This document shows, in pieces, positions 5,442-37,800 of a DNA stretch of 64,000 bases. Every line of letters begins with the position of its first letter. The stretch's first letter is position 1. Made by a program: the position numbers and the translations under genes. The notes below the pieces were generated by a model. The model was not told where the DNA came from. It did not search any database and saw only the letters and a list, made by a program, of their open reading frames with translations. This DNA is from an uncultured bacterium (GTDB lineage: Bacteria > JAGOEH01): positions 1-64,000 of the forward strand of contig CAZWDO010000016.1 in NCBI GenBank assembly GCA_964632485.1, read 5' to 3'.

Positions 5442-6454
5442 TATTCTTCCTTTACCTTGTATTGATAGCGCTCATAGACTCCTTCGATTCCCTGAATAAC
5501 CCGGATTGATCGTAGGGAATCGTTCTCGATCCGAAGTTCGATTTCATTGCCAGTTAATCGGTTGAATCCCCGTTCCTTTTTTTCAGCGTTCCAGGCGCTG
5601 TAATCCGCTGCGGCATTTTGAAAAATGCCGATACGTCTGGGTTTGTTATCTTTCAAGTGAAATACGATTTTTTTCCCCGAAAAAATAGTAGAGGATGAGT
5701 CTGCTTTTAGGGTATCTTCATGAATAAATCGGCCTTTGGCATAGGGTAACACCCATAAACTGTCAATTTTTTGTTTGGTATAAAAAATTTCAGCTCCGTC
5801 GCCATTCAACCGGCTTTTTTGAAATATAAATTCGGTTGGCTTCGAACAGACGATATGAGCGGCTTTTTTATACCACTGCGCTTCGTTTGTATGAATTAAT
5901 ATTTCTTTTTTTTGAATCTCAATATTATTCCACAAAAGTACTGAATCAAACCGACCGAAAACCAGCGCTGAATCCGCTTTAATTTGATACTCTTCATAAT
6001 CGATTTTTAAATCTCCGTAGAACCAGGTCTGATTGGTCAGATGGTGATGGATGGCTCGCTTCCCCTGTACAACCAACTTAAGGGCTGTATCTTTAAAAAT
6101 AAAAAAGGGAGTAAAGATAAACACTTCACGGTCAAGATGAATGATGAGAGAATCGCTGTAAATATCGCGATGGCGGTCAGTAAGATGCACCCGCTGCGTC
6201 AACTGCGCTATTTTACGCAATTCGTTTTGATATCCCATGCGAGCGGTCGCAACCAGTGTATCCATTGCGATTTGCACGCTATCACTCCATCTTGTAACGA
6301 GTTCATCATCAGAAATTCTTTCGACACTTAGTCTTCCGGCATATTGAAGCCGGATTTCACGAGTTTCATTGGCTATTTGACCTAAGGCAGAATAAACAGA
6401 AAGAAACATAAAATAGAGGAATGTAGCGATAGTAAGTTTAATTTTTATTGACAT
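5441..6454 (-). CDS. LptA/OstA-like beta-jellyroll protein (exported)
   Basis: signal-like N-terminus from MSIKIK; repeated 'I.ADS' beta-taco motifs; coupled to lptB; start could be 6493. Confidence 0.65.
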   Translation of the reverse strand: MSIKIKLTIATFLYFMFLSVYSALGQIANETREIRLQYAGRLSVERISDDELVTRWSDSVQIAMDTLVATARMGYQNELRKIAQLTQRVHLTDRHRDIYSDSLIIHLDREVFIFTPFFIFKDTALKLVVQGKRAIHHHLTNQTWFYGDLKIDYEEYQIKADSALVFGRFDSVLLWNNIEIQKKEILIHTNEAQWYKKAAHIVCSKPTEFIFQKSRLNGDGAEIFYTKQKIDSLWVLPYAKGRFIHEDTLKADSSSTIFSGKKIVFHLKDNKPRRIGIFQNAAADYSAWNAEKKERGFNRLTGNEIELRIENDSLRSIRVIQGIEGVYERYQYKVKEE

Positions 6455-23121: not shown

Positions 23122-23881
23122 GAGGTTCCGGAGAAATTTTAGGGCTCACTCCTTCTGACACAGCGCGGATTAACCAGCTTATCAGCAAAACGGCGAGCCA
23201 GTTTGTCGTTAAAGCGATTCGATTTCCGGGAATGAGATACATCCCACAAGCTATCTTGATATAGGAGACTTCAATGGACCGCGCAGTAAAATCTTCGAGA
23301 ATTCGTTATCGTTTGTCTTGAAAAATTTGCATAACTTGGCTGCGGATGAGATTCAGGCGTTTTATCAGCGGTTTCGAATCTTTTTCGGCGATGAGATCAT
23401 GGGCAGAACGAAATTGATCCGGGATTATTCCATCCGTCGATAAGTCACGAACGATCTTTCTTTCCAGCCATAATTTGAACCATAATGCCGACATTTAAAT
23501 TTTTTTCTATATATTGAATAACACTTATTAAACTGTACTGGTCATTCATCAGTTTTTTTGATTCCCGATTTGGAAACAAAAGGAATTTTAATTGAGAAGA
23601 AAAATAGAGAAGTCAGAATCCATACGGCAGCTTCATGTTCAGTGCAAGTGCCGTGTTATTCATACTATAGAATTCATTTATGCTTTTTATATGGATAGTG
23701 GGCAGGCTGAATGATGATTCCGAAAGGAGAATATATCGGTTATCGATACTGAGGTTCATGTCAGGCCCATCTCTTAAATCAGCTGTTTAATGATGCTAAG
23801 TGCAGTATCAGGATTATTTTGTAAAACAAGCTTAATAGTGAATTGTATAGGCAATGATGTTTTAATAATGGAGCTGGTAGA

Positions 23882-24280
23882 ATGAAAAAGCAAATTGAAG
23901 AAATTATTCAAAAAAATTTTACTGATCCGAATTTTAATGTTACAGTACTGTATGAAAAAATTGGATATTGTGAATCCCGATCATTTGAAATGATTTATAA
24001 GTATTTCGGCATGAATGCTCAGCAATTAATCGAATCATTCCGCTTGCATCAGGCGCTAAATATGTTGGCAGAAGGGAATTTGGTTCACAAAATATATGGA
24101 AAGGTCGGGTATGCTAATGTCCGAACATTCCGTTTCGCATTTAAAAAGCGTTTTAAACTGAGTTGCTGCAAGTGCCGGGAGAAGCTGTTGGGTTGTGATT
24201 GTTCAATAATTGAACTTGAACAGTTTTATTCAACATTATGGATGAGAGAGCAAAACGAGACTATAAAAAATTCAGAGTAA
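23882..24280 (+). CDS. AraC-family HTH protein (DNA-binding domain only) with Cys-rich tail
   Basis: NFTDPNFNV, RLHQALNML, KVGYANVRTFRFAFKKRF; tail CCKC...CDC; GGAG RBS. Confidence 0.8.
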   Translation: MKKQIEEIIQKNFTDPNFNVTVLYEKIGYCESRSFEMIYKYFGMNAQQLIESFRLHQALNMLAEGNLVHKIYGKVGYANVRTFRFAFKKRFKLSCCKCREKLLGCDCSIIELEQFYSTLWMREQNETIKNSE

Positions 24281-24410
24281 AGGTTAATTTCAGATTTTAT
24301 TCAGGATAAAAGTTTTAAAGTGGACGTGTTAGGGGGGGTGTCAGCCCCACTGAAATATTAAAATATAGAGTATATTAATGAATTAATTTATAATAATGAA
24401 TAGGTAATAA

Positions 24411-24683
24411 TATAACCGGCGATTATAACCGGCGATTAGTTCCGGCGATTATAACCGGCGATTAGTTCCGGCGATTAGTTCCGGCGATTAGTTCCGGCGA
24501 TTAGTTCCGGCGATTNNNNNNNNNNNNNNNNNNNNNNNNNNNNNNNNNNNNNNNNNNNNNNNNNNNNNNNNNNNNNNNNNNNNNNNNNNNNNNNNNNNNN
24601 NNNNNNNNNNNNNNNATTAGTTCCGGCGATTAGTTCCGGCGATTAGTTCCGGCGATTAGTTCCGGCGATTAGTTCCGGCGATT
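24411..24683. repeat. 13-bp tandem repeat array (CCGGCGATT-AGTT / CCGGCGATT-ATAA) spanning a scaffold gap
   Basis: 8 CCGGCGATT cores before the N-run; 5 full plus 1 partial after it. Confidence 0.95.
24516..24615. other. assembly gap (100 N)
   Basis: run of N inside the tandem repeat. Confidence 1.
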
Positions 24684-24788
24684 TTGGTACTTGACAATTT
24701 TTTATTTTTTTTTATTTTTTATTAGATTAATTATTTTAGTTTTAAAACTTACTGGAATTTAATCAAATATTAGAGAAAGGAATTGTTC

Positions 24789-25939
24789 ATGAAACGTAGG
24801 CGTTCAAATTCTGATCTAACATTGTTAAAACGAAAAAATTCATTGTTAAATTCTTTGTATTTTTGGTATATAGAGCGTTGACGAGGGACAGGATTTAGTA
24901 TGAGTTGGATACTTTGGGATGGAATCCATCTATTTCGGCGGATCAACGGAACGAAGCTGAAGCGTATGATAGCGTTTTTGTTCTTATTCAGTCTGGCCGG
25001 ATCTATTTGCGCGTTATTTTATTCTTCTGGACGTATTGAAACCCATCGAAAAATTTCTACAATCTGTAAAGATAAAATCGGCAGAAAATTTATTTCTTTC
25101 TGTTTGCCACAAGTCAATTATAACATTTTGGGAAATAGTGAGATATGCCTGCCGGATTATCAAAATCATACACGTACGGCACTGATTGTTTACTATAATT
25201 TTTGTCCTTCATGTCGCATTTTGCTTCAAAATCTCGATAAAATCAACCGGATTGATACGTTGGTCAATACTCGCATTATCGCTTATTCATGGGGGAATTC
25301 CCAAGACGGCATTCATATCGATGATACCGCCACCTATCGCAGTACCATGGAATTGATTGATGAATACAATTTTTCTTTTCCTTTTGTTTTAAATCGACAA
25401 GATGTTTTTGAATCTGTTAAACGCATGTTCCCCCGCTTTCCGAAACCGGCAGTTTTTTTCTGGATAGTGAACTATCGATTCTTTACGTTTTCAGCGGATT
25501 GGGTAACTTTGAAGAAGTACGACGTCTGATTAAGGAATTCGATGCAAATGGTGAAATCACATCTATTGGACGTAATATACTTCCTGATACAGTGCGCCAT
25601 GAATCCATTAATCAGCAAATAGGCGCAGCGGATTGCTATCTGTTTTTACAAAAGACACGGAATTTAATTTTGCTGGATTCAGCGGTTTCGGAATTCATGA
25701 ATGAATATCTCTTCGATACAAGTTTCTGGTATGAAGATTTGAACTTATGTAAAGAGTCTGGTCAAATTCAATTGCGATATTCGGTTATCGGCAAAACCTG
25801 CGATTGTCCCGAAAAGTCAGGCAAATATAATAGTTTTACGATTACCCGCAATCTGGATTCATTGAAAATTTTTGAGAAAAAATTTATCATAGGGGAATCG
25901 AAAAACGTATGTATTCGCGCGGCGAAGGGAGAAGAGTGA
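24789..25939 (+). pseudogene. membrane-anchored thioredoxin-like (CPSC) protein, interrupted by an in-frame TGA (24879) and a -1 frameshift (T7 run, 25453-25459); pseudogene, recoded gene or assembly error
   Basis: ATG 24789 with AAAGGA RBS is in frame with ORF 24900; YNFCPSCR motif; a -1 shift gives PAVFFLDSELSILYVFSG and joins ORF 25499..25939. Confidence 0.6.
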
Positions 25940-26499
25940 TTATACGCCTATTGAAGCAAACTTTAGAAGTAAGGATTGCCGTATTTCTTTTCTTATTCAT
26001 TTTCTTAGCGATTCCCTTTGGTGTGTTAGCTGGGATATCTCATTTGTTAATCAGACCGGACCTAAATAAAAAAATATATGCCTGGTGGCATGGCGCTCAA
26101 TTCACTGGAACTGAAGGAGTGATCCTGCAGGATAAATTTAATAATTGTGGACCAGCGGCCATGAAAATGGTATTAATGCAGTTCGGAATAAAAACCTCCT
26201 TGGCCGATATTGAACGTCTTGCAGGAACGGATGCTCGGGGTACATCGATGCTGGGATTGAAACAGATGGCGGAAAGTTGTGGATTACGAGCGGAAGGCTG
26301 GCGGTTTGTTTGGGAAGATTTTCGAAAAATCGACTTGCCGGCCATTCTTTTTGTCAATGGTGATCATTATGTGACGGCACTCGAGTTTATTGGTAAGGAT
26401 ACGTTAATTTTAGCCGATCCCGCGATCGGAAAACTTAAGATATGTCAGCGAAACCTGAAGAAAATCTGGAAAGGGGAAACGCTGGTTTTGAGTAAATAG
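25936..26499 (+). CDS. stand-alone membrane-anchored peptidase C39 (double-glycine leader peptidase)
   Basis: LQDKFNNCGPAAMKM, GTSMLGL, DHYV, LADPAIG, W.G..L; N-terminal TM; GTGA overlap with the upstream stop. Confidence 0.9.
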   Translation: MIIRLLKQTLEVRIAVFLFLFIFLAIPFGVLAGISHLLIRPDLNKKIYAWWHGAQFTGTEGVILQDKFNNCGPAAMKMVLMQFGIKTSLADIERLAGTDARGTSMLGLKQMAESCGLRAEGWRFVWEDFRKIDLPAILFVNGDHYVTALEFIGKDTLILADPAIGKLKICQRNLKKIWKGETLVLSK

Positions 26500-26628
26500 C
26501 GCTTTTGGACGGCCGTCCCGGTGATCAGGCCTTGAGCCGCGGCAAATCATCGGTTTTTTAGATACGTTGTGTGTTGATTGCGTACGCTAAAATATGTCAA
26601 CTTTAATGAATGATTGGAGTAAAAACTC

Positions 26629-26919
26629 ATGTTCAAGAAAACCATCGTAATGATCGTTGTCTGCGCACTATTGTTTATGTGTATTCAAGTAAGCGCTCAA
26701 CCGATAATTAAAACTACTCATCTTTCAATTGAAAGCATGCAAATTAATTATGGCGGTCTCTCTTTTTCATGTATCCTAATGCTTTCAGGTTATGCCGCTG
26801 CTTGGGGTACTGCAATTACTGCAACAGCTCTTTCGGCTGGAGCAGCAGCTTGGACAATTCTTGGTCTTTATGCTGCTTCTGCAGGTATTGGTATAATGTT
26901 TCAGGAATGCTTCGGTTAA
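26629..26919 (+). CDS. putative bacteriocin/RiPP precursor: Sec signal, double-glycine leader, 53-aa hydrophobic core with two Cys
   Basis: MFKK plus hydrophobic h-region and VSA|Q; LSIESMQINYGG|; core LSFSC...AAAWG...ECFG; GGAG RBS; followed by a terminator; adjacent to C39. Confidence 0.75.
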   Translation: MFKKTIVMIVVCALLFMCIQVSAQPIIKTTHLSIESMQINYGGLSFSCILMLSGYAAAWGTAITATALSAGAAAWTILGLYAASAGIGIMFQECFG

Positions 26920-26931
26920 TTAATTAAATCA

Positions 26932-26962
26932 AAAAGGAAGGTATATTACATACCTTCCTTTT
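26932..26962 (+). terminator. Rho-independent terminator/stabilising hairpin after the precursor
   Basis: AAAAGGAAGGTAT-attac-ATACCTTCCTTTT, perfect 13-bp stem. Confidence 0.85.
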
Positions 26963-26988
26963 ATTAAGCCCCAAATGAAAGCAATAAT

Positions 26989-27738
26989 ATGAAACTAAAA
27001 TTGATGCATATTTTTGAGATTAATAAAAAACTATCAAAGAGAATAAATAAAGGTGTTCCATATCCGATTACTATAGGTCTATTTTCAATTTTGATAGCAA
27101 TGTTTACAATGCTAATAAATAATGAAATTTTAAATAATAGCATTTTGAGTAAAAAATCAAGTTTTATTGCATTGATAACTGTATTGATGTGTTTGGTGTT
27201 TTTGTTCAGTGTACTACCATTAATTATCAAAATTGACCATAAAATGTTCTATTCAACAAAACCATTGAATATTTTTCCGATATCTGCCCGGAAAATCTAT
27301 CATTTACAAATCATTAGCATTTTAATGGATTTTCGACTGGTTTTGTATTGCTCATCTTTTATTCTTTCAACAATTTTTTTCTTTTTAGGGGTTTCGTATA
27401 AAGTGGGTGTGATTTCCGGACTAATTTTTATCCTAACAAGTATGACTTATGAAACCCTCATAAGCAATTTAAGTATTTTGCTGATCAATTTTCCAAAATT
27501 TTCTGTGAGGAATTTGTTGTTTATTCCAATTTTTTCCCCGATATTAATAAAACTGCTAAAATTGAAAGAGGATTTTTTTATCCACATTCCATTATTTTCA
27601 TGGCCTGGGTGGGCCATTTATCATTTTCATCATGGAGACTATTTGAATTCTTTTCTCTATGTTTTCTTTTTGATACTGTTAAGTGTTGCCGTCTACATCT
27701 CCGGTTATTATCTTACACAACACCTGGCCAGGGATTAG
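26989..27738 (+). CDS. multi-pass membrane protein, probable ABC-2-type permease/immunity
   Basis: about 6 TMs; 'IFPISARKI' motif; very AT-rich. Confidence 0.65.
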   Translation: MKLKLMHIFEINKKLSKRINKGVPYPITIGLFSILIAMFTMLINNEILNNSILSKKSSFIALITVLMCLVFLFSVLPLIIKIDHKMFYSTKPLNIFPISARKIYHLQIISILMDFRLVLYCSSFILSTIFFFLGVSYKVGVISGLIFILTSMTYETLISNLSILLINFPKFSVRNLLFIPIFSPILIKLLKLKEDFFIHIPLFSWPGWAIYHFHHGDYLNSFLYVFFLILLSVAVYISGYYLTQHLARD

Positions 27739-27765
27739 TAAATCGATATCTGAAGCGGGATTTAA

Positions 27766-28458
27766 ATGAAACTAAGTAGCAACTGTTGTCAAAAAACGTT
27801 CTGGGTTTTGATCCAAAATGACATGAAACTGCTAACAATATACCACAAAATCCACTATATCCTCCTGTCGGCCATAGTTATGGTGCTTCTGATCGGAAAG
27901 TTTGTCAATCGTCATTTGCCATTCTATAATTATCAATCGGCGATCTGGATTGCCTTGCTCAGTTTTGAACCCTTCATCAACAACATGCTGGCAAGATTTC
28001 CTCGTGAGTGCGCTTCTTATCGAATTTTCCCTATTCCGACCAACTCCTTGTTGTTGGCCAAATTATCCCTTAATCTGATCACCATCTTTACTGCGCTAAT
28101 TGGGATATTTATCATGTTGGCAGTATTTTTGAAAATCAATACTCTCGAATTGACAGCGCTCATTCAGATATACTTGCCCGCTATGGTTTTGATTCAGGCC
28201 ATCGGGGTCGTACGTTCCATTCAGGCCCAAAGTGGAAAGAACAAACGCGTGGCCATAATCTCATTTTTTAATGTCTTTTGGATGTCGTTGATCATATTGG
28301 TGATAAATCTATTGGTCGATTTCTTCCATCGGATTGCTTATCGCTGGATTTGGTATTGGTTTATCGTTGTTATTATTTTTTTGATCAGTTATTATCTGTT
28401 ACGATTTGCATTGGGATTATTCAATAAAAACCAGTTTTCCATCCTGGAGGATGAATGA
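27766..28458 (+). CDS. multi-pass membrane protein, probable ABC-2-type permease/immunity
   Basis: about 6 TMs; 'YRIFPI...LLLAK' motif; ATGA overlap with the ATPase. Confidence 0.65.
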   Translation: MKLSSNCCQKTFWVLIQNDMKLLTIYHKIHYILLSAIVMVLLIGKFVNRHLPFYNYQSAIWIALLSFEPFINNMLARFPRECASYRIFPIPTNSLLLAKLSLNLITIFTALIGIFIMLAVFLKINTLELTALIQIYLPAMVLIQAIGVVRSIQAQSGKNKRVAIISFFNVFWMSLIILVINLLVDFFHRIAYRWIWYWFIVVIIFLISYYLLRFALGLFNKNQFSILEDE

Positions 28459-29231
28459 AAAGCATCGAAATCAAAAACTTCAGCAAGGTATATAAAAAGT
28501 CAATCAAAGCAGTTGATAATTTGAGTTTGAATATCCCGAGAGGGTGCTTTTTCGGATTGTTAGGGTTGAACGGCGCCGGAAAAACTACAACTGTCAACTT
28601 TATTGCCGGGTTAATTCGGAGGAGCTCAGGAGAACTTTATATTCAGGGAGAAGCAATTACCGACTCCAGCTATATGTATAAGGCTAAAATGGGTTTTGTT
28701 TTGGACCGTCCGCTATATATCGAAAAATTTACCGTTAAAGAATATCTAAGTTTCGCTGGTCAGATGTATGGTTTGGATTCCTCTGCCACGGAACGTCGAA
28801 GTGAAGAGTTACTTGAATTTATGGAACTTGGTGAAAAACGCAATGAATTGATTGAAACTTATTCAGCGGGAATGAAAAAGAAAGTCTCACTTAGCGCGGC
28901 TTTGATCCACAATCCAGAGATATTGATTCTTGATGAGCCGTTTGAGGGAATTGATCCCGTATCATCGAAAAAAATACGGGAAGTGCTTTTGGATTTGGTG
29001 AAAAAAGGGAAAACGATTGTGCTAACCTCTCATATTTTGGAAATCGTCGAAAAATTGTGTAATGAAGTAGCTATTATGAACAAAGGAAAATTGATCTTCC
29101 AGGATCGGATTGAAAACATACAAACTTATATCAAGGAAGGAAACGAACAAACATATTATCAAGGATTGGAAGAACTCTTTCATCATCTTGTCGGTCAAAA
29201 TGATCTTCCGTCCACATTGTCATGGATGTGA
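28455..29231 (+). CDS. ABC transporter ATP-binding protein
   Basis: GLNGAGKTT, YSAGMKKK, ILDEPFEGIDP, TSH. Confidence 0.92.
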   Translation: MKSIEIKNFSKVYKKSIKAVDNLSLNIPRGCFFGLLGLNGAGKTTTVNFIAGLIRRSSGELYIQGEAITDSSYMYKAKMGFVLDRPLYIEKFTVKEYLSFAGQMYGLDSSATERRSEELLEFMELGEKRNELIETYSAGMKKKVSLSAALIHNPEILILDEPFEGIDPVSSKKIREVLLDLVKKGKTIVLTSHILEIVEKLCNEVAIMNKGKLIFQDRIENIQTYIKEGNEQTYYQGLEELFHHLVGQNDLPSTLSWM

Positions 29232-29309
29232 ATTTGAAGGATTATATTGTCAGGAATAACCTGTTTTTTTGGCGTAATTAAGTTTTAGCAACACTCCAAG
29301 GAGGATTGT

Positions 29310-29675
29310 GTGAAAAAAACGTTGTTGATCATTGTCCTGGTCGTTATCGTCATAATTCTTGCCCTCGTCGCGATCTGCTATACCCAGAAAGACAAACTGG
29401 TTCAGATAGGTATGGAAAAAGCTATGCAGTCTGTTGAATCAGTGATCGTAAAGAACCTGCCCTCATCTATTGAAGAGGATAGTGCCAAAACCATTGTCCG
29501 CGAATTTTTTGCCAACACACAGGCGCAAAAAATACCTCCTGCGGCACTGCAAGCCGTTATGACTCAGTTTCAAACCAGTTTTGCGGATCAGAAACTGGAT
29601 TCTGCTGAAGTGACCGATATTCTGAGTCGCATGAAAGCGGCCAGTCACCCTAAAGCGGAGGATGCTCAACAATGA
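29310..29675 (+). CDS. small membrane-anchored hypothetical protein
   Basis: AAGGAGG RBS, GTG start, single N-terminal TM, helical body. Confidence 0.7.
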   Translation: MKKTLLIIVLVVIVIILALVAICYTQKDKLVQIGMEKAMQSVESVIVKNLPSSIEEDSAKTIVREFFANTQAQKIPPAALQAVMTQFQTSFADQKLDSAEVTDILSRMKAASHPKAEDAQQ

Positions 29676-30349
29676 ATACGATTAAACTATTAATTGATCC
29701 CCAAAACGTATGTCTCGATATTAAGCAGAACCCTCGCTGGATTCAGGCATTTATCTTAATCAGCGTACTGGGCATTCTATCGGGCGCTCTAACTCTGCCC
29801 TTCAGTATGCAATTGGCGGCGGCTAAAATGGGAGTCATCCCTGCGGGTCAGATGGAACGAGTTAAGGATATGAGCCAAATGTTCGGATATGTCGGTTTGG
29901 TTTTTGTTCCGATCGCTCTATTGATTAAATGGGCTGTCATGGGATTTTTTCTGTATTTGCTGGGTATTCTTTTTCGGAGTGAAATGAAATTTAAATCTCT
30001 TTTTTCATTGCTTGCCCATGCCAATATCATCCTGATCGTTTCATCCCTGGTTAATATTCTGATTTTATTCATCAAAGGGCCTGAATCGATTCAGCATCCC
30101 CTGGATTTAAATGTGATCGGATTGCATATTCTTTTTGATTTCGAAAGCATGAATCATTCGCTATATTATTTTTTCTCTTTGATCAATGTTTTCGAAATCT
30201 GGTATTTGGTTGTTCTGTTCATGGGTCTGGAATTGATATTTGATTTGGATCGGGCAAAATCAGCGGCAATCATTGGCGTGTATTGGCTAATTTCCATCTC
30301 AGCCATGACGGGCTTCGCTTCTTTCTCGGAAAAATTTCAACAATTTTAA
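29672..30349 (+). CDS. Yip1-domain membrane protein (YknW/As-48E-like)
   Basis: 'LIDPQ...IKQNPRW' start, about 5 TMs, 'NVFEIWY..L..GL' Yip1 motif. Confidence 0.8.
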   Translation: MNTIKLLIDPQNVCLDIKQNPRWIQAFILISVLGILSGALTLPFSMQLAAAKMGVIPAGQMERVKDMSQMFGYVGLVFVPIALLIKWAVMGFFLYLLGILFRSEMKFKSLFSLLAHANIILIVSSLVNILILFIKGPESIQHPLDLNVIGLHILFDFESMNHSLYYFFSLINVFEIWYLVVLFMGLELIFDLDRAKSAAIIGVYWLISISAMTGFASFSEKFQQF

Positions 30350-30366
30350 CGGTATGTAATAACAGG

Positions 30367-31551
30367 ATGATAAAACGTATACTTATTGCCATTTCGGTTT
30401 TAATAGGAATTGGATTGATTATTATTGGTAATTTGCGTCAACGAAAACATTATTTGACGGTGGATGTGGAACCGGTTGAAAAAGGCAGAATCACCCGTAC
30501 CGTGGCTGTTTATGGTAAAATATTGCCGCGGACAATGGCTAAAATTTCTTCCGATCTCAATGGCAGAATCGAAGATATCACCGTAAAAGAAGGGGATACG
30601 GTAAAAAAAGGCGAACTTTTGGCTCAAATCAACAAGGAATGGCATATCGCCTCACTGGATAAAGCCCAATCCAATTTGAAATCCGCAGAGCTGGAGCTGG
30701 AAATTGCTCAACTACAAAAAGAACAATCGGAACGAACTGTTAAACGCTTGCATGAATTGGTATCCAACCAGTTTGAAGCGAAACTCAAACTGGAGGATGC
30801 GGCCAGCGACTATGAAATTAAGCAGATTCAGCATCGCTCGGCCATTGAGCGTAATAACCAGGCGCGGGCCGCGTTGCGCCAGGCCCGTAACGATCTGCTT
30901 AAAACTGAGATTTTCGCTCCCTTCAATGGTACTGTGATTCAAATTAATAAGGAAATCGGAGAAATGACTACTGGCTCTCAGTTTCAGGAAGATGTGATTA
31001 TGATTCTGGCTGATACTGATACCATGGAATTAATCGCTAAAATCGATGAAAATGATGTAGTTCTGACTCATGTGGGAGACACGGCCAAAATTTTTCTGGA
31101 CGCGTTTCCCGATTCCATTTATTGGGGCTTTGTTGACCATATTCGCAATTTTTCTTCTTCTCCCCGACTGGGAGTAAATGAAGGATCCTCTGATTTTGAA
31201 GCGAAAATCGTACTCACCACCAAACCTGCTGATATCCGGCCGAATATGACTGCCTATGCCGAAATTTTAGCAGAAACGCATGGCCATGCCATTGTTATTC
31301 CGATTCAATGTGTGACCACACGTGAAGGTACGGAGAAGAAGAAGGAATCAGTGGTTTTCGTTGCAATTGGTGATTCGGCTGTCCAAAAACCAGTTAAAAT
31401 GGGACTAAATAGCGATACTCATTATGAAATTCTTCAGGGACTTGATGTTGGCGAACATGTGATCACTGGCGATTATGAGGCCATCCATACAAGGTTGAAA
31501 CAGGGCATGTTGATCAAGGTGAAGCCAACCGAAATGGAGAAAACGCTATGA
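30367..31551 (+). CDS. efflux RND/ABC periplasmic adaptor (membrane fusion protein, MacA/YknX-like)
   Basis: N-terminal TM; GRIEDITVKEGDTVKKGELL and IFAPFNGTV lipoyl halves, coiled coil, IRPNMTA. Confidence 0.9.
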   Translation: MIKRILIAISVLIGIGLIIIGNLRQRKHYLTVDVEPVEKGRITRTVAVYGKILPRTMAKISSDLNGRIEDITVKEGDTVKKGELLAQINKEWHIASLDKAQSNLKSAELELEIAQLQKEQSERTVKRLHELVSNQFEAKLKLEDAASDYEIKQIQHRSAIERNNQARAALRQARNDLLKTEIFAPFNGTVIQINKEIGEMTTGSQFQEDVIMILADTDTMELIAKIDENDVVLTHVGDTAKIFLDAFPDSIYWGFVDHIRNFSSSPRLGVNEGSSDFEAKIVLTTKPADIRPNMTAYAEILAETHGHAIVIPIQCVTTREGTEKKKESVVFVAIGDSAVQKPVKMGLNSDTHYEILQGLDVGEHVITGDYEAIHTRLKQGMLIKVKPTEMEKTL

Positions 31552-32237
31552 GTTTGATCAGTATGCGCAATATTTCTCGCACGTTTCAGATGAAAACCGT
31601 TAGTATCGACGCATTACGGAATATCTCGCTAAACGTCGGAAAAGGCGAGTATGTCAGTATTATGGGTCCGTCCGGTTCGGGGAAATCGACGTTGATGAAT
31701 CTGCTGGGGTGTCTTGATCGGCCCTCTTCCGGCGAGTATTTTCTTGGAGAACGCAACGTCCATCAATTTAATAAACTTGAATTAGCCCGCATACGCAACC
31801 GGGAGATCGGTTTTATCTTTCAAACCTTTCAATTGCTTCCCCGGGCAAATGCGAGGCAAAATGTTGAGCTTCCTCTGATCTATGCCGGAATTTCGGCCCG
31901 GGAGCGGAGAGATCGGGTTTCCCGCGCCCTGGTACGGGTGGGCTTAAGCGATCGGATGTTGCATAAACCAGGAGAACTCTCCGGGGGACAATGCCAGCGG
32001 GTGGCAATCGCCCGCGCGATTGTTAATCAACCCTCAATCATTTTGGCCGATGAACCGACCGGTAATCTAGATTCTGCCACCGGCAGGGAGATTTTGGATA
32101 TTTTCCGTGAGTTGCACCATGAGGGTCATACTATCATTATGATTACCCACGATGAAACCGTGGCCGATGAAACGATCCACCGGATTAAAATTAAAGATGG
32201 AAGAATTGTCGAAGATACTCATGAGACTTCTGCCTGA
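31548..32237 (+). CDS. MacB/LolD-type ABC ATP-binding protein (YknY-like)
   Basis: GPSGSGKST, IGFIFQTFQLL, LSGGQCQRVAIARA, LADEPTGNLD. Confidence 0.93.
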   Translation: MSLISMRNISRTFQMKTVSIDALRNISLNVGKGEYVSIMGPSGSGKSTLMNLLGCLDRPSSGEYFLGERNVHQFNKLELARIRNREIGFIFQTFQLLPRANARQNVELPLIYAGISARERRDRVSRALVRVGLSDRMLHKPGELSGGQCQRVAIARAIVNQPSIILADEPTGNLDSATGREILDIFRELHHEGHTIIMITHDETVADETIHRIKIKDGRIVEDTHETSA

Positions 32238-33435
32238 ATACGTTATAATTGCTATCCATGCTTTTATGGAATATAAAACTCAGTTTTTATTGTCTATGAT
32301 CGGTATTATTATTGGTATCTTTACAATCAGTACGATGGTTGCTATCATCAATGGACTCAATCGGGCATTCGATCAACAGATTTCTTCCCTTGGCGCTCAA
32401 TCGTTATATGTCTCCAAATTTCCATGGTTGATGACAGAAGAACCCTGGGCCTATCAAAAGCGAAAAAATATCACCTGGCGACAGTTTCAACAACTCAAAA
32501 ATAGATTATTGGGAACGTTTATTCTCATACCGCAATTGACTGTGAATTTGCCACTAACCAGGGGACGTGAAAAAATGAAATCGGTTCGGGTGATCGCGAC
32601 GGATGAGAATTATTTTCAGGGTTCCTCGTCCGGGAAAATCCGGCAGGGACGTTCGATCATTAAGACGGACCGCGAAACTAATAAAGCCGTAACCGTGATC
32701 GGAACGGAAATCGCGGATAAATTGTTTCCTTCCTGTAATCCCCTCGGAGAAAGAATCTCAGTGGACGGTCGTGTTTATAAAATAATTGGGATTATGGAAA
32801 AACAGGGGACATTTTTTGGTCAAAACAATGATCAGGCAATTGTAGTTCCCATTACTACTGTGTTAAAACAGGTTGGCCCCCATCAATCTCTGGATATTCA
32901 AGTAACATATCCGGCAAATTGTCCATTCGAGCAAGCCGAACGTGAAATTACCACGATGATGCGTCGGGTTCGTGGGCTAAAACCTAACGTGCGGGAAGAT
33001 TTTGCCATTAATCGGCAAGATATGCTTAAACATGCCTATCAATCGCTAACCGGTTCGATATATGCCGCGGGAATCCTGATCGCTTTGATTTCCATCATGG
33101 TTGGCGGCATTAATATTATGAATACTATTCTGATGTCCGTGAAACAACGAACCCGGGAAATCGGTATCCGTAAAGCTTTCGGTGCTACGGAAGGCGGAAT
33201 CATTTTGCAATTTGTGATCGAATCCGTTTTAATTTGTATCTGCGGGGGAGTGATCGGTATTGGAGCTTCTCGTTGTTTCGAGTATTGGCTTGAAAGTCAG
33301 TTGCCGGTTCAATTCACAGTATTCAACCTATTGCTAAGTGTAGGATGTTCGGCGCTTGTTGGTTTATTTTTTGGTATTTTCCCTGCATTCCAGGCAGCCA
33401 AATGCGATCCGGTCGAATCCCTGCGCTATGAATAA
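32221..33435 (+). CDS. MacB/FtsX-type ABC permease (YknZ-like)
   Basis: LSMIGIIIGI, VGGINIMN..LMSV.QRTREIGIRKAFGA, GIFPA..AA..DPVESLRYE. Confidence 0.92.
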   Translation: MRLLPEYVIIAIHAFMEYKTQFLLSMIGIIIGIFTISTMVAIINGLNRAFDQQISSLGAQSLYVSKFPWLMTEEPWAYQKRKNITWRQFQQLKNRLLGTFILIPQLTVNLPLTRGREKMKSVRVIATDENYFQGSSSGKIRQGRSIIKTDRETNKAVTVIGTEIADKLFPSCNPLGERISVDGRVYKIIGIMEKQGTFFGQNNDQAIVVPITTVLKQVGPHQSLDIQVTYPANCPFEQAEREITTMMRRVRGLKPNVREDFAINRQDMLKHAYQSLTGSIYAAGILIALISIMVGGINIMNTILMSVKQRTREIGIRKAFGATEGGIILQFVIESVLICICGGVIGIGASRCFEYWLESQLPVQFTVFNLLLSVGCSALVGLFFGIFPAFQAAKCDPVESLRYE

Positions 33436-33450
33436 TCGGAGAATCGATAG

Positions 33451-34665
33451 ATGTTGATTGAGATGATCTATATCGCCTTTCAAAATATTATGGCTCATAA
33501 ACTGCGATCATTCTTGACTCTCTTGGGGATTATCATTGGCATTTCGACTATTATTTCCATCCGAATCGTGATGGGCAGCATCGAATACATCATGAAAGAC
33601 AGTTTTAAATTATTTGGAGCCAATATGTTTCAGATATTTAATCAGAGCATTGTTCATGCCGGACATGAGGAAGAACTCAAACGGCCGAATATTACCTGGC
33701 GGGAAGGACAGCAATTAAACAATAGAATTGATAATGCCGATTATGTCAGTACTGAATTAACCCGCGGCCAAATTTCCGTCATTTATAAAAGCAAATCCAC
33801 ACCACCGAACGTAATGGTCTTGGGTGGAACCCCGGAGTCAGCTCCCAACAATCATTACACAATTCAAACCGGCCGATTTATCAATGAACATGATATCCGC
33901 TTCAATCTTAATCATGCTGTTATCGGCCGAAGGGTCAGCGACCTGCTGTTTGATGAGGGTAACGGTTTAGGCGAATCCATTCGCATCGGACGGGTTCGCT
34001 TTAAGGTCATCGGTATTTTGAGTTCGATGGGCAATAGTCTAGGCATCAATCTGGATAATCTGGTGGTAATTCCAATTTCTACTTATATTCAAACCTTTGG
34101 TAAAAATGAATCGGCAGTGATCAAGGTTCAGGTATCAGAAGAATATGCGACGGCATCTGTGATTGACAAAGCGCGGCTATTGTTGCGCATACTCCGTTGC
34201 CTGCGCCCCGCTCAAGACGATAATTTTGAAATATTTTCCAGTGATTTTATTCAAAAATTACTGGATAATTTGATCAGAAAAATGAATATAGCCGCAATCG
34301 GTATCAGTTCAATTGCCTTTTTGATTGCGGGGATCGGTATTATGAATGTCATGTTTATTTCCATTCTGGAACGCAGAAATGAAATCGGCATCCGCAACGC
34401 TTTCGGAGCAAGTATGATGCATATTTTATTGCAATTTTCCGCTGAAGCGGTAATATTAACGCAATTGGGAGCTGTTGTTGGTATTTTTATCGGCATTGTG
34501 TTTGGAGTGTTTGTCCAGATCATGATTTTTCGCATTCCGTTAACTCTGCCTTACCTGTGGATCGGCTTTAGTCTGGGGGTCTGCACTATTTTGGGATTGC
34601 TGTTCGGATTATGGCCTGCGCTGAGGGCCGCTCGGCTTGATCCTATAGAAGCTCTGAGGAAATAG
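33451..34665 (+). CDS. MacB/FtsX-type ABC permease (second paralogue)
   Basis: KLRSFLTLLGIIIGI, GIGIMNVM..SILERRNEIGIR, WPALRAARLDPIEALR. Confidence 0.92.
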   Translation: MLIEMIYIAFQNIMAHKLRSFLTLLGIIIGISTIISIRIVMGSIEYIMKDSFKLFGANMFQIFNQSIVHAGHEEELKRPNITWREGQQLNNRIDNADYVSTELTRGQISVIYKSKSTPPNVMVLGGTPESAPNNHYTIQTGRFINEHDIRFNLNHAVIGRRVSDLLFDEGNGLGESIRIGRVRFKVIGILSSMGNSLGINLDNLVVIPISTYIQTFGKNESAVIKVQVSEEYATASVIDKARLLLRILRCLRPAQDDNFEIFSSDFIQKLLDNLIRKMNIAAIGISSIAFLIAGIGIMNVMFISILERRNEIGIRNAFGASMMHILLQFSAEAVILTQLGAVVGIFIGIVFGVFVQIMIFRIPLTLPYLWIGFSLGVCTILGLLFGLWPALRAARLDPIEALRK

Positions 34666-34670
34666 TGATA

Positions 34671-37034
34671 ATGACTGCTAACCGCTCCCGGATCGATTTC
34701 TGGCAAGCTTTTTTAATTATTTTCACTTTATTGGCCGGTATTTTTATTTTGCCGGAAACATTACCTTTTTTATTCGGGGTTAATTTTTATTTGATGGCGC
34801 AACAAATCCGCCGGGAGCATCTCTCTTTATTTTCCAATAGTTTCTATTGGCTATTCATATTGTTGATTGCTTTGGCAATGACCAATCTGCGCTCCAGCAT
34901 TTATTTCAATAATAGTGTCGAGTTCATTCAGAAATTGTTCTATTTGTTATTGTATATCAACTTGATTCGATTAGTATCTCTTTCAGATGATGCTAAACGA
35001 ATGATCGCTTATATTGTCACTATCTTGGGTGTTCTTTTGGCTCTCTTTACAATTGCTGTTTTAGCAATATTCTATATGATGATTTGGATGCAAGGCTTTG
35101 TTCGGGTTCTTGATTTCCGTTTTATGATCAATCCGTTTGGGATTCCTCTAAATGAATGGACCACGCAATTCATCCTTTTTTTTCCGTTTTCAGCAATCGC
35201 AATCTATCGGTGCCGAGAAGATAAATCGTTCCGATTTTGTTTTTTTTGTGGTGGGATTTTGCTAATCCTTCCCATGGTTTTATCTTTTTCCCGGGGAATC
35301 TATCTTGCGTTGGGCTTTATGATGATTGCCATTTCACTATTCGTCATTAAATTCAAATTAATTCCATGGAAAAAAGTAGCTTTGACCGCCCTGGTGTTTT
35401 CAGTGATTTCAATTGCCGCCATTTTACCGGCACGGTTATCTTTTGTATCCACTTTGCATGGCAATAAGACCATTTCTCAGCAGCGCAGCAGAGAGGGCAG
35501 GATAAAATTATGGAAAAAAGCATTGACTATTCCCGGAGAGCGCTTGCTGACCGGTGTGGGCGCCTATAATTTCAGTATGAGATATGTTTCAGAGAAAGAC
35601 CGAACGGAAGATACAGCGTTTACCAGTCAATCGGCAAACTTATTCGTGTTGGTATTTGTTGAACATGGGGTTGCGGGTTTGCTGATTTTTATTGCTTTGT
35701 TCGCTTTGGGAATAATGGGATTTATATCCCGCCTAAAGCGTCCTAAAGTTGAAAAAATTGAACTGATTTTTTTCTCTTGCTCCATAGCCGCTCTAATATT
35801 ACGGGAAATGACTTTTTCTTCCCTTATGAATAATAATCTGATGATTTTGCTGTGTGGGTTAATAATCGGTTTATTATCCTATCCAATTCAAGGTTATTTA
35901 CAAATAAAAAAATTGGATTATCTGATTTTGATCTTGTTGTCCCTTGCATTTGGATTTATCTATTGGCATACTTTTAAAATAGAGAAAGCAAAAAAACATC
36001 ATTGTGATTGTATAGCGAGTTATCATGCCGGCCAATGGGCGGAAGCGCAAAAAAGCTTGCGAAAAGCAATCGAATGGAATCCGCAGCAGGCGCTTTATTA
36101 TAGTGATATGGCGCTGATGAGTTATCAGTTACTGGACACTTGCCCATACTTTGACAAGTCGGCGTTATTTATTGACAGGGGAGATATGGATTGTTACCGT
36201 TATCTGGATATCATCCAATTTTATCAATCGGCATTGCAATTCAATCCTGCGGACGATGGATATCATTTCAATCTGGGTTGGATTTATTGGTTGATGGGAG
36301 ATGACGAACAGGCGCTGATTCATTTCAATGAAGCAATCCGGATTGAACCAAATTTTGCGATTTACCATATCGGACTGGGGCTTCTCCATGAAAAACTGAA
36401 GCATCCCATATCGGCTGTTAGCGAATATCTGAACGCTATCCGCCTATCACCGGATATATTAGATTCCCCTTTTTATCAGGGATTGAGTGCTTCGTATCGA
36501 ATTTCCATCGAGAATTCAATCGGAAACTTGATTGCCGAATTGGAACAGAAAGGCGATAGTCCGATCTATCATGGGCGGCTGGCTAAATTATATCTATATC
36601 AAGGACGGTTGAATGAAGCTGAATCGCTATTAGTACGGCTTACGACCCAAGTTCCCAATCTTTCCCGTCCATGGCTTTGGTTGGGGATAGTCCATCGACA
36701 AAGGCGCCAGTTTGGAGCAATGATCCGTTGTTGTCAAAAATCGGCCTTTGTCAATTCCCATGATTATTTACCGTGTTGGGTGATGGGCCAGTACTATGCA
36801 TCGGTCGATGACGAGCAGGATGCTGATTATTGTTTTCTCCAGGTCAGGAAAAAAATTAAGGAACAGTATTCTGAACATTATTTTCGAGCTCAATATATCT
36901 ATCGTATGGCTGGGATTAAAAAAGACTGGATTCCAAATGGATTGTATGAATACATCAGTCCGATGATGGCAGATGTAACTCAGAAATATCCCGATGAGAT
37001 GAAGGATAATTCTCTGGGAGAAATGATTCAATGA
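34671..37034 (+). CDS. O-antigen ligase (Wzy_C)-family membrane protein with C-terminal TPR repeats
   Basis: about 12 TMs; LSFSRG, R..LW......LTGVG..NF, SAN.F..V.VE.G..G; several TPR units (e.g. YHFNLGWIYWLMGD.EQA..HFNEAIRIEP). Confidence 0.8.
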   Translation: MTANRSRIDFWQAFLIIFTLLAGIFILPETLPFLFGVNFYLMAQQIRREHLSLFSNSFYWLFILLIALAMTNLRSSIYFNNSVEFIQKLFYLLLYINLIRLVSLSDDAKRMIAYIVTILGVLLALFTIAVLAIFYMMIWMQGFVRVLDFRFMINPFGIPLNEWTTQFILFFPFSAIAIYRCREDKSFRFCFFCGGILLILPMVLSFSRGIYLALGFMMIAISLFVIKFKLIPWKKVALTALVFSVISIAAILPARLSFVSTLHGNKTISQQRSREGRIKLWKKALTIPGERLLTGVGAYNFSMRYVSEKDRTEDTAFTSQSANLFVLVFVEHGVAGLLIFIALFALGIMGFISRLKRPKVEKIELIFFSCSIAALILREMTFSSLMNNNLMILLCGLIIGLLSYPIQGYLQIKKLDYLILILLSLAFGFIYWHTFKIEKAKKHHCDCIASYHAGQWAEAQKSLRKAIEWNPQQALYYSDMALMSYQLLDTCPYFDKSALFIDRGDMDCYRYLDIIQFYQSALQFNPADDGYHFNLGWIYWLMGDDEQALIHFNEAIRIEPNFAIYHIGLGLLHEKLKHPISAVSEYLNAIRLSPDILDSPFYQGLSASYRISIENSIGNLIAELEQKGDSPIYHGRLAKLYLYQGRLNEAESLLVRLTTQVPNLSRPWLWLGIVHRQRRQFGAMIRCCQKSAFVNSHDYLPCWVMGQYYASVDDEQDADYCFLQVRKKIKEQYSEHYFRAQYIYRMAGIKKDWIPNGLYEYISPMMADVTQKYPDEMKDNSLGEMIQ

Positions 37035-37588
37035 GATTGAATAATAGGTTGACTAGTAAGCATTCTCTTGTTAACGTTTGTTTAGTTATAATAGTATTTT
37101 TCCAATTTTCGATACTTTGTAAACAAAATCGGCGAATCAATGCGCTAACTTCAATGATTACACAGCATGAAAAAGAATTTATAGGAGATGGGTATTCATC
37201 CCGAAATCTGAGGCTTTTAGAGAGTCGCATGTTAAATCCAGAAACAAAAATGAATCTGATTTATTTTTTGATCAATGACGACAATTCCAGTACCTATCAA
37301 ACAGAACTTCACTTTTTAGAAGAGAGATACAAATGCGCCCCATCCGTGTTGCGGGTAGTCAGTTTCAGACTACAACCAGCTCTTGACAGTTTGGGGATTT
37401 TGTATGATTTGATTTCGCCCAGACGAATTTTATTTAATGAATCTATCATGACATTTTCTTCTCTGGCTATGTTGGCTGATCTTGATGGGAATATCCATAC
37501 TGTTTATTATTTGAACCCGTATCAAGTGGTGGATGCTATGGTGAAAATCGAACGGATCAAATCGCTGATGGAATCCTTGGAACCATGA
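37031..37588 (+). CDS. membrane-anchored hypothetical protein (possibly degenerate thioredoxin-like fold)
   Basis: N-terminal TM; 'MLADLDGNIHTVY' strand motif; ATGA overlap with the upstream gene. Confidence 0.6.
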   Translation: MRLNNRLTSKHSLVNVCLVIIVFFQFSILCKQNRRINALTSMITQHEKEFIGDGYSSRNLRLLESRMLNPETKMNLIYFLINDDNSSTYQTELHFLEERYKCAPSVLRVVSFRLQPALDSLGILYDLISPRRILFNESIMTFSSLAMLADLDGNIHTVYYLNPYQVVDAMVKIERIKSLMESLEP

Positions 37589-37683
37589 AACAGTTCAGTC
37601 TATTCGTAGAATTGCCTGGCTTGATATTGTTTATTTTGATTGTACTCATGCTGTTGTTCATCATTCAGACAACTGACCGCTAA
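37585..37683 (+). CDS. putative 32-aa single-TM small protein (MKQFSLFVELPGLILFILIVLMLLFIIQTTDR)
   Basis: ATGA overlap with the preceding stop; strongly hydrophobic helix; below the ORF track cut-off. Confidence 0.45.
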   Translation: MKQFSLFVELPGLILFILIVLMLLFIIQTTDR

Positions 37684-37800
37684 ACTGTCATTAATTGCCT
37701 GAACTGCTATAAATGCAGGGAACTGTTGTTTCAATATCCGTGTCTGTAAAAAATAGCAGAAATTGATAGAAATAGTGTGGATTAGTGGGAAGATATGGAA

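Follow-up and report, generated by a model that had tools for sequence, protein, structure and literature searches.

A Candidate Cassette for the Extracytoplasmic Maturation of Double-Glycine Peptides around an Anchored C39 Peptidase in an Uncultured Bacterium

Introduction

C39 peptidase domains cut after double-glycine (GG) or glycine-alanine (GA) leaders, and the locus described here raises the question on which side of the inner membrane such a cut would be made, and for what product, where the peptidase stands alone and the peptide carries a signal-peptide-like segment in front of its leader. The locus lies at positions 23,882 to 37,683 of a stretch of 64,000 nucleotides (nt) from an uncultured bacterium (JAGOEH01; assembly GCA_964632485.1, contig CAZWDO010000016.1), and this whole stretch is called the window below. 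Its centre is a precursor open reading frame (ORF) of 96 aa, which is accompanied by genes for a stand-alone C39 peptidase, a thioredoxin-like oxidoreductase, an ABC-2-type transporter and a Yip1-family membrane protein, as shown in Table 1.

An earlier note, made from the letters of the window, had named these parts and had proposed that the precursor is exported by Sec and matured outside the inner membrane, with the transporters providing export or immunity. ORF listing, translation and Pfam and NCBIfam searches found the named domains where the note had placed them. Its descriptions of the C39 as free of any ABC fusion and of the precursor as joining a Sec-type signal to a double-glycine leader were borne out, the latter by comparison with related loci under a heuristic signal test, and a terminator- or attenuator-like hairpin follows the precursor gene to which it had assigned a terminator. 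The CxxC thioredoxin-like gene that it listed is present as well, but it is one gene with the following ORF (orf146), split by a frameshift. The note had also named short ORFs with a signal peptide (SP) and a GG leader beside C39 homologues in other genomes as support for a conserved system, and such ORFs were found in 49 of 66 related loci. Judged by this comparison of sequences, the arrangement is a real, conserved cassette, and its conserved core (thioredoxin-like oxidoreductase, anchored C39, precursor, ABC-2 transporter and Yip1) is read here as one functional cassette.

Results

Conservation of the Cassette

The related loci were collected from one genome per species with a six-sequence C39 alignment, which returned 80 loci, and 66 of these contain a close homologue of the C39 of the window (BLASTP E < 1e-15). 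The 66 loci carry the labels Ignavibacteria, Bacteroidota, Latescibacterota, Poribacteria, Aminicenantia and Gemmatimonadota, with about 45 from Acidobacteriota, the acidobacterial ones belonging to Thermoanaerobaculia, Holophagales and 'Multivorans'. An ORF for a CxxC thioredoxin-like protein lies directly upstream of C39 in 59 of the 66 loci, and an ORF with SP, GG and at least two Cys was found within 4 kb downstream of it in 49. No C39-ABC fusion occurs in any of the 66, the longest C39 ORF being 308 aa. Downstream of C39, an ABC-2 ATPase was detected in 46 loci, Yip1 in 51, both in 42 and either of them in 55; when only the 56 loci whose downstream sequence extends for 7 kb or more are counted, the numbers become 45, 49, 41 and 53. 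In 20 of the 66 loci, no ABC-2 ATPase lies within 9 kb.

Three architectures were observed. Architecture A, seen in seven Ignavibacteria/Bacteroidota loci, has the order thioredoxin-C39-precursor followed by an exported partner of about 176 aa and Yip1, and contains no ABC gene. Architecture B, found in the window, in L011, L012 and L021 and in Acidobacteriota, has thioredoxin-C39-precursor followed by an ABC-2 permease and ATPase, and Yip1. Architecture C consists of a gene for a family 2 glycosyltransferase (GT2) with tetratricopeptide repeats (TPR), C39, a Cys-free precursor, a protein with four transmembrane (TM) segments, and Yip1. Three of the seven loci that lack the upstream thioredoxin-like ORF (L010, L017 and L019) carry the GT2-TPR gene in its place, and their SP+GG precursors are 90 aa long with cores devoid of Cys. 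Cys in the cores thus goes together with the thioredoxin-like gene, which argues against these genes being mere neighbours, the three loci representing two lineages only. These loci (e.g., L017 7375-10850) belong to Poribacteria/Latescibacterota, their GT2-TPR protein looks cytoplasmic, and the core of their precursor has a polar C-terminal tail.

The exported partners of the Ignavibacteria/Bacteroidota loci without ABC-2 genes form a family mostly of about 165-185 aa with no Pfam match (Table 1), and no such partner of about 176 aa occurs in the genome of the window. Tandem cassettes were seen in L008 (627-7231), with two C39 genes (627-1247 and 5510-6214) that each have a precursor and a partner of their own behind them, and with Yip1 and an 803-aa protein of DUF5686 and CarboxypepD_reg domains between the two; a DUF5686 protein is also part of the L018 cassette. 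No similarity was found between the 802-aa ORF flanking the block in the window and the DUF5686 proteins located behind Yip1 in L008 and L018 (E 0.29). An SNF2 helicase gene upstream of the cassette in acidobacterial L039 was rejected as a part of the system; large ORFs of similar length lie upstream in other acidobacterial loci too. Inspection of the loci L072 and L076, which contain a peptidase-containing ABC transporter (PCAT), revealed no bacteroidetocin-like layout.

Precursor Peptides

The precursor ORFs were sought with a simple filter: the n-region had to contain K/R, the h-region had to be hydrophobic and free of charges, and a GG located within residues 28-75 had to be followed by two or more Cys. 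In the zone downstream of C39, 53 of 647 ORFs of 45-200 aa fit this filter, compared with 4 of 5431 elsewhere in the same loci, so the association of the peptides with C39 is more than chance. The filter also misses real cases, such as L021, through the choice of start codon, and the GA-cut variants of L016 and L059. Judged by this heuristic, the leader is preceded by 20-25 signal-like residues both in the window and in the 49 loci, with n-h-c layouts ending in small residues such as VSA, VNA or LMA. Several loci harbor two or more different peptides.

The glycine at residue 42 of the window's precursor is the only invariant column among 15 aligned precursors. The leaders of the FCB-type (Fibrobacteres-Chlorobi-Bacteroidetes) alignment show S/T, an acidic or polar residue, M/L at position -7 and GG, as in classical double-glycine leaders. 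The profile was drawn from 46 peptides of 44 loci chosen by stricter rules, among which GG at -2/-1 is a selection criterion and not a finding. At -7, leucine is the most frequent residue (22 of 46 peptides), and at -10 the most frequent residues are acidic, with D in 15 and E in 13. The cores of this set have a median length of 43 residues and contain 21% Ala, 17% Gly and 4.5% charged residues (D+E+K+R). Exactly two Cys are present in 36 of the 46 cores, the first Cys lying a median of six residues after the cut and the last a median of two residues from the C-terminus.

The AlphaFold2 model of the precursor, with a mean predicted local distance difference test (pLDDT) of 67.6, contains a signal helix at residues 3-22 and a short leader helix at 34-41. 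The core of the model forms two helices, 46-68 and 73-95, with a turn of four residues between them, an arrangement that would put both Cys48 and Cys94 at one end of a hairpin. Prediction of a complex between the C39 domain (residues 60-196) and the precursor (24-96) gave a score of 0.02, with the mark at 0.32, which is evidence neither way. The RNA hairpin behind the precursor gene has a free energy of -16.5 kcal/mol and a z-score of -4.53, and none of 200 shuffled sequences was equally stable.

No homologue of the precursor other than itself was found among 5.8 billion proteins, and none of the 15 precursors matched the curated NCBIfam precursor models. One of the 15 has a marginal Pfam match to DUF5826 (E 0.0084), a domain of unknown function and not a bacteriocin model. 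The structural look-alikes of the precursor in the Atlas are fragments of polytopic membrane proteins. A second SP-bearing family of about 105-120 aa, with C-terminal halves rich in Pro and Cys, was seen directly after C39 in several acidobacterial loci (Table 1), and the one member compared with Pfam (L037 4226-4555) had no match.

C39 Peptidase, Thioredoxin-like Protein and Membrane Side

The C39 of the window, for which an alternative GTG start at 25936 is possible, has an N-terminal hydrophobic anchor preceded by K/R. Its active-site residues Q74, C80, H153 and D170, which comprise the catalytic Cys and His together with the oxyanion Gln and Asp, are invariant among 15 C39 homologues. The collection of 5.8 billion proteins contains 19 stand-alone homologues of 111-201 aa, and a profile of the 15 C39s recovered 180 representative clusters at E <= 1e-30, the best 150 of which all have lengths of 110-345 aa. 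The protein scores 38.7 bits against the FapD model NF058616, whose cut-off is 330. No C39-ABC fusion was found within the block. The same genome (G000) does contain a 730-aa C39-ABC of PCAT type on another contig (C12 92905-95097), in a region (92069-98017) that also contains a HlyD-like ORF of 274 aa and, directly behind the C39-ABC ORF, one of 977 aa, together a classical export set; inspection by eye found no convincing GG-leader ORF within 3 kb of it.

The thioredoxin-like ORF of the window shows a weak Pfam match to Thioredoxin_2 (E 0.038), and the ORFs at the same position elsewhere score to AhpC-TSA/Redoxin where tested, e.g., L012 with 3e-21. Its thioredoxin-fold motif continues in the next frame past a run of seven T (T7), and an eighth T (T8) is present at this site in one contig each of the runs X2 and X3, which come from another sample and are 90-99% alike, while the probable source run X1 has no extra T there. 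The continuing frame and the T8 contigs rule out that the thioredoxin-like ORF and orf146 (25499-25939) are separate genes, and the split stems either from an error of the assembly or from a lesion particular to this strain. A single contig of run X3 joins across 886 nt (window 24764-25651), removing most of the thioredoxin-like gene, and a single contig of run X2 joins across 1539 nt (window 25383-26923), removing C39 and the precursor. With one contig each and short sides (34 and 23 nt), these joins may be artefacts or other strains.

Fusion proteins bear on the side of the membrane on which the two enzymes may work. Among the best 150 C39 representatives, the ten longest include seven Redoxin/thioredoxin-C39 fusions, two of them with weak thioredoxin matches. 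In the five fusions with complete N-termini, K/R stands before a single N-terminal hydrophobic anchor, the CxxC domain comes next, and the linker from there to C39 contains no hydrophobic segment. A single anchor with no membrane segment between the domains would place both domains in one compartment. Formation or reshuffling of disulfides by N-terminally anchored TlpA/redoxin-type domains takes place outside the cytoplasm, and because the substrates also carry signal peptides, the periplasmic face is the coherent reading. We therefore infer from these domain arrangements that C39 and the thioredoxin domain probably stand on the periplasmic face.

Transporters and Yip1

The ATPase that follows the two membrane proteins of the window is nearest to TIGR01188 drrA (E 1e-61), with 208.9 bits under a cut-off of 312. 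In other loci, the interval between precursor and ATPase is occupied either by one 10-12-TM ORF of about 510-640 aa or by two ORFs of about 250 aa, and the 10-12-TM permease-like ORFs have no Pfam match. Compared with a profile built from the long form, the first permease half of the window matches its N-terminal part (E 2.7e-4), while the match of the second half (E 2) is not significant. The look-alikes of the first half in the Atlas are ABC-2 permease clusters, including a lantibiotic-type one (feature likeness 0.96, TM-score 0.6-0.7), which serves as a lead only.

The Yip1 protein scores 75.3 bits against NCBIfam YknW_fam (NF052650), the cut-off of which is 110. In the consecutive genes of 29672-34665, the domains Yip1, HlyD_D23, ABC_tran and MacB_PCD+FtsX follow one another, which is a YknWXYZ-type layout. 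This module of a membrane fusion protein (MFP) and MacB accompanies the cassette in only two of the 66 other loci (L014 and L038), and in L014 it is preceded by a gene for a TolC-family outer-membrane efflux protein.

Accessory Island and Passenger Genes

The block sits in a low-GC insertion of 14.7 kb, with a GC content of 0.35-0.40 at 24-30 kb against about 0.43-0.46 around it. Of the 40 relatives searched, one belongs to the same family and one to the same order, the lineage of the window being thinly sampled. In a search with glutamine synthetase, the best other match was 71% identical, and the named matches, at 62-69%, are spread over many phyla. In the same-family genome G001 (contig C206), the orthologues of the 802-aa and PEPCK-like flanking genes are convergent and about 10 nt apart, the final 24 codons of the former opening the contig and the latter ending at nt 89. 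Since the flanking orthologues abut there, the interval 23122-37800 is present in the window and absent from G001, and the block as a whole is an acquired island. No match to the C39 query was found in genomes G001 and G002. The island borders bear no att-like direct or inverted repeats of at least 12 nt, and no Rfam family was found within 23000-38000. The PEPCK-like flanking gene of 540 aa has a weak PEPCK_ATP match of 54.6 bits over nearly the full model and may be a divergent relative instead of a standard PEP carboxykinase.

The genes of the block are joined by overlaps of 1-4 nt or short gaps. The earlier note's coupled, AT-rich block thus stands as far as its low GC and its junctions are concerned, but the AraC gene cannot be counted in, for a run of 99 N (an assembly gap at 24517-24615, inside the 13-nt repeat array) separates it from the remainder, so that its linkage rests on scaffolding, and an AraC-like ORF lies upstream of the cassette in only one of the 66 loci (L015). 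No counterpart of the Wzy_C-TPR protein was found near the related cassettes of the 66 loci, the matches being TPR-based only. For orf121, orf185, orf146 and the second permease half, phmmer and iterated HMM searches found no homologues in 84 loci. The genes for AraC, for Wzy_C-TPR and for the two small anchored proteins belong to the passengers or accessories of the island, outside the core.

Table 1. Features of the accessory island in the window, and ORFs of the second SP-bearing family and of the exported partner family in related loci (the latter in locus coordinates).
Feature	Position	Strand	Remarks
Accessory island	23122..37800	.	whole interval from PEPCK-like gene (21499-23121, +) to 802-aa gene (37801-40209, -)
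Small AraC-type helix-turn-helix (HTH) protein, 132 aa	23882..24280	+	HTH domain only; possible regulator; Pfam HTH_18 E 5.2e-10
13-nt tandem-repeat array, unit CCGGCGATTAGTT	24416..24683	.	at least 13 copies; in island between AraC gene and cassette
Membrane-anchored thioredoxin-like oxidoreductase (CPSC) with C-terminal extension	24900..25939	+	split: 24900-25529 + 25499-25939
T7 homopolymer, frameshift site in thioredoxin-like gene	25453..25459	+	three-frame translation
Stand-alone C39 cysteine peptidase, 196 aa, N-terminal hydrophobic anchor	25909..26499	+	Pfam PF03412 E 1.8e-28
Precursor ORF, 96 aa	26629-26919	+	signal-peptide-like N-terminus, then LSIESMQINYGG, then Gly/Ala-rich two-Cys core
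Precursor residues 1-23, putative Sec-type signal peptide ending VSA	26629..26697	+	heuristic: charged n-region and hydrophobic h-region
Precursor residues 24-43, double-glycine-type leader ending G42 G43	26698..26757	+
Precursor residues 44-96 and stop, 53-residue hydrophobic core	26758..26919	+	Cys48 and Cys94; predicted two-helix hairpin
Stable RNA hairpin, 13 bp, after precursor gene	26932..26962	+	terminator- or attenuator-like
Two polytopic membrane proteins (249 and 230 aa), likely ABC-2-type permease halves	26989..28458	+	no Pfam/NCBIfam match
ABC-2/DrrA-type ATPase	28455..29231	+	ABC_tran E 7.6e-26
121-aa protein (orf121), N-terminal hydrophobic segment	29310..29675	+	no Pfam/NCBIfam family
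Yip1/YknW-like five-TM membrane protein	29672..30349	+	Pfam Yip1 E 8.6e-16
MacA-type MFP (likely start 30367), MacB-type ATPase, two MacB_PCD+FtsX permeases	30283..34665	+
Wzy_C (O-antigen-ligase-like) and TPR membrane protein	34665..37034	+	presumably co-transcribed; outside conserved core
185-aa protein (orf185), N-terminal hydrophobic segment	37031..37588	+	no family
SP-bearing Pro-/Cys-rich ORFs	L037 4226-4555; L063 10663-11025; L064 10456-10776; L069 10580-10906
Exported partners	L005 7552-8106; L007 11485-11973; L008 1823-2362, 6704-7231; L013 10956-11486; L015 10967-11500; L018 1032-1559; L025 1349-2314

Discussion

Proposed Mechanism

On the comparative evidence, it is highly probable that these genes belong together as one unit whose peptide is processed at GG outside the cytoplasm. 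The fuller reading that we favour, in which Sec export is followed by periplasmic disulfide stapling, GG cleavage and extraction or immunity by the transporters, appears probable, though with greater reserve. The 96-aa pre-pro-peptide would be exported by Sec, with signal peptidase removing residues 1-23. On the periplasmic face, the anchored thioredoxin-like enzyme would link Cys48 to Cys94 and so tie together the ends of a two-helix hydrophobic hairpin, and the anchored C39 would cut after G42-G43, releasing a disulfide-stapled hairpin of 53 residues with class-II-bacteriocin/microcin character. Being hydrophobic, this product would enter the inner membrane of the producing cell itself, from which the ABC-2 transporter with Yip1 would extract or expel it, giving self-protection, release or both, and in this genome the added YknWXYZ/MacAB-like pump would do the same.

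The part of the earlier proposal that placed Sec export and maturation outside the inner membrane gains from the comparison, since the thioredoxin-like neighbour in 59 of 66 loci, the single-anchor fusions and the SP+GG ORFs all point to it. The glycosylation that it held possible is unsupported, as none of the 66 loci encodes a counterpart of the Wzy_C-TPR protein. The label of a ribosomally synthesized peptide with post-translational modifications (RiPP) is likewise unsupported, as the Pfam and NCBIfam searches showed no modifying enzyme beyond the oxidoreductase and the protease among the 16 ORFs of the block.

Several points weigh against the favoured reading. The locus counts overstate independence, because a single acidobacterial group contributes about 45 of the 66, and in the nearer group of 18 loci (L005-L021 and L025) an ABC-2 ATPase was found in four and Yip1 in 12. 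The signal peptides were judged by a simple rule and not by a trained predictor. GG-leader peptides with two to four Cys and without an SP were observed at L030 10810-10983, L033 10750-10980 and L037 4596-4781, and these peptides, which lie beside SP-bearing ones, misfit a purely periplasmic processing. The oxidoreductase gene is frameshifted, and the cassette may be impaired in this genome. Pfam and NCBIfam scans of the block found neither a TolC-family nor a FapF-like outer-membrane exit protein. The likeness of the precursor to class II bacteriocins in the Atlas (0.81) is weak, one third of shuffled proteins reaching that value. Lastly, toxicity to other bacteria cannot be assumed, because the Nap peptides of Neisseria, described below, did not kill competitors.

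Comparison with Known Systems

A full-text search of the literature found no described system in which a peptide with a Sec signal and a GG leader is encoded next to an anchored C39, a thioredoxin-like protein and ABC-2/Yip1. The cassette can be seen as the double-glycine peptide theme varied by a proposed extracytoplasmic maturation, a periplasmic stand-alone C39 having been published already. The view that it is not a described class accordingly holds for the gene set itself, but not for two of its elements, the periplasmic C39 (PMC5557850, PMC11798529) and the YknWXYZ-type module (PMC4887032).

With the PCAT or ABC-transporter maturation and secretion (AMS) systems of class II bacteriocins and of microcin V with CvaAB-TolC, the cassette shares the GG leader, a hydrophobic residue at -7, the Gln/Cys/His/Asp residues of C39, a small Gly/Ala-rich hydrophobic core with a disulfide, and dedicated transporters nearby. 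The cassette differs in that a Sec signal precedes the leader, C39 is free-standing and anchored, and cleavage would take place outside the cytoplasm. In the SDP system of Bacillus subtilis, SdpC itself is presumably Sec-exported and processed outside the cell; SDP matures through SdpAB and not through a C39, and it has no GG leader. Pre-pro-peptides of the Escherichia coli heat-stable enterotoxin type pass through Sec export, periplasmic disulfide formation and removal of a pro-region. Their resemblance to the cassette is one of mechanism only, including exit by a MacAB-type pump, as the peptides are unrelated and involve neither a GG leader nor a C39. As for glycocins, a peptide glycosyltransferase is not conserved here, a GT2-TPR gene being adjacent in three of the 66 loci only. 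MacAB-TolC is described as 'implicated in enterotoxin secretion' (PMC4887032), and the same paper reports that YknWXYZ protects B. subtilis against SDP, a 42-residue toxin with one intramolecular disulfide. A module of this kind, with a Yip1-family protein, an MFP, a MacB-type ATPase and an FtsX/MacB permease, is adjacent to the cassette in the window.

The bacteroidetocins, according to Coyne et al. 2019 (PMC6671954), combine a Cys-bearing GG peptide with a dedicated thiol oxidoreductase as the proposed source of the disulfides, a multi-TM protein that activity requires, and a peptidase-ABC transporter. The cassette follows the same Bacteroidota-type four-part logic, with Sec and a separate C39 in place of the peptidase-ABC transporter, and with ABC-2/Yip1 added. 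FapD is an active, soluble periplasmic C39 with a Sec signal that works with the FapF barrel and amyloid subunits (PMC5557850, Rouse et al. 2017), and that paper describes the periplasmic C39 class as yet to be characterised, with a target that "remains unclear". The periplasmic C39 acting on Sec-exported substrates would be common to both, FapD being soluble and the C39 of the window apparently anchored. The block contains no barrel and no amyloid-repeat proteins, and has the thioredoxin-like partner and ABC-2/Yip1 instead.

The nap island of Neisseria is horizontally acquired and encodes small GG-motif bacteriocin-like peptides and the stand-alone C39 NapP (PMC11798529, Poncin et al. 2025). 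In the model of that paper, the peptides undergo cleavage within the periplasm, with export proposed through the FapF-like NapF, and they promote autolysis and did not kill competitors. The inner-membrane route is left open there, the term 'signal peptide' occurring 0 times in the main text. The Nap peptides are cationic, in contrast to the almost uncharged cores of the cassette, and that paper describes no thioredoxin, ABC-2 or Yip1 genes for nap.

Nature of the Product and Alternative Explanations

A competition peptide fits best, because the cores diverge fast while leaders and enzymes are conserved, several peptides occur per locus, and the cassette lies on an island; an inserted, low-GC block is in keeping with this, such features being common for accessory competition loci. 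That the product is an antimicrobial, membrane-active toxin is nonetheless proposed tentatively, at somewhat short of an even chance, because of the autolysis precedent of Nap, the lack of an outer-membrane exit in the block and the weak likeness to bacteriocins. The peptide might instead be matured in the periplasm as proposed and not be a weapon, serving as a small protein of the ABC-2/Yip1 complex, as a surface-active or amyloid structural peptide, or as an autolysis or programmed-death factor like Nap. Both published periplasmic C39 systems are non-competitive, Fap making amyloid (PMC5557850) and Nap leading to autolysis (PMC11798529), the almost uncharged core resembles two transmembrane helices, the structural look-alikes in the Atlas are fragments of polytopic membrane proteins, and the missing exit points the same way. 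This explanation is nevertheless unlikely, since the precursor has no homologue in the collection in which its C39 has 19, the leader being kept while the cores diverge, and since several loci carry at least two different peptides, an acquired island carries the cassette and is missing from the nearest genomes that were searched, and L014 couples it to a complete TolC-MFP-MacB pump. Divergence, multiple peptides, island and pump are typical of diversifying secreted peptides and not of housekeeping subunits.

The membrane side could also be reversed, with C39 facing the cytoplasm, the N-terminus of the precursor serving as an uncleaved anchor, the cut made at the inner face and the core exported by the ABC-2 transporter, in the manner of a split PCAT. 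The C39 domains of PCATs do work on the cytoplasmic side (PMC5557850), an ABC ATPase and permease adjoin the precursor, and some loci encode GG peptides without a signal peptide. Yet the Redoxin-C39 fusions with their single anchor put C39 together with a disulfide-forming domain that would be pointless in the reducing cytoplasm, the signal layouts are canonical down to their small-residue ends, 20 of the 66 loci lack a nearby ABC-2 ATPase, and architecture A has no ABC at all, which leaves this arrangement improbable. GG leaders also serve signalling peptides such as competence pheromones, and a small AraC-type gene is present in the island and next to the L015 cassette, so an exported pheromone sensed by the AraC-type protein or another regulator might be envisaged. 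This seems still less probable, as no sensor kinase or receptor is conserved with the cassette, the AraC link is confined to one of the 66 loci, a nearly uncharged two-helix hydrophobic product of about 40-55 residues is unlike known diffusible pheromones, and dedicated ABC-2/Yip1 partners suit protection better than sensing. The precursor has no sequence homologue and its ORF is short, as would be expected if its GG motif and signal peptide were coincidental and the genes mere neighbours; the conservation of position in 66 loci with several phylum-level labels, the enrichment of fitting ORFs near C39, the thioredoxin-C39 fusions and the tracking of the core Cys with the thioredoxin-like gene make such a coincidence the least credible of these explanations.

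Implications

Returning to the favoured reading, we consider it about an even chance that the cassette belongs to a widespread diderm branch of double-glycine biology, in which Sec, an anchored periplasmic C39 and a thioredoxin-like oxidase would replace the PCAT, the products would be two-helix hairpins stapled end to end by a disulfide, and Yip1, with or without ABC-2, would be the partner for extraction or immunity. The range proposed for this branch is Ignavibacteria/Bacteroidota, Acidobacteriota, Latescibacterota, Poribacteria and others. If true, the substrate class and the cut site of periplasmic C39 peptidases would become defined, and a function would be assigned to bacterial Yip1 proteins. 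The cassettes offer a simple, testable pair, in which a single protease would cut a single small peptide at one predicted site, behind GG. Tools that seek PCATs or N-terminal GG leaders would be expected to miss such peptides, and should the products be antimicrobial, a large untapped pool of bacteriocin-like peptides would lie in poorly cultured Gram-negative phyla. The cassette would also tie the bacterial Yip1 family and the uncharacterised 10-12-TM ABC-2-like permeases to the handling of hydrophobic peptides in the cell envelope.

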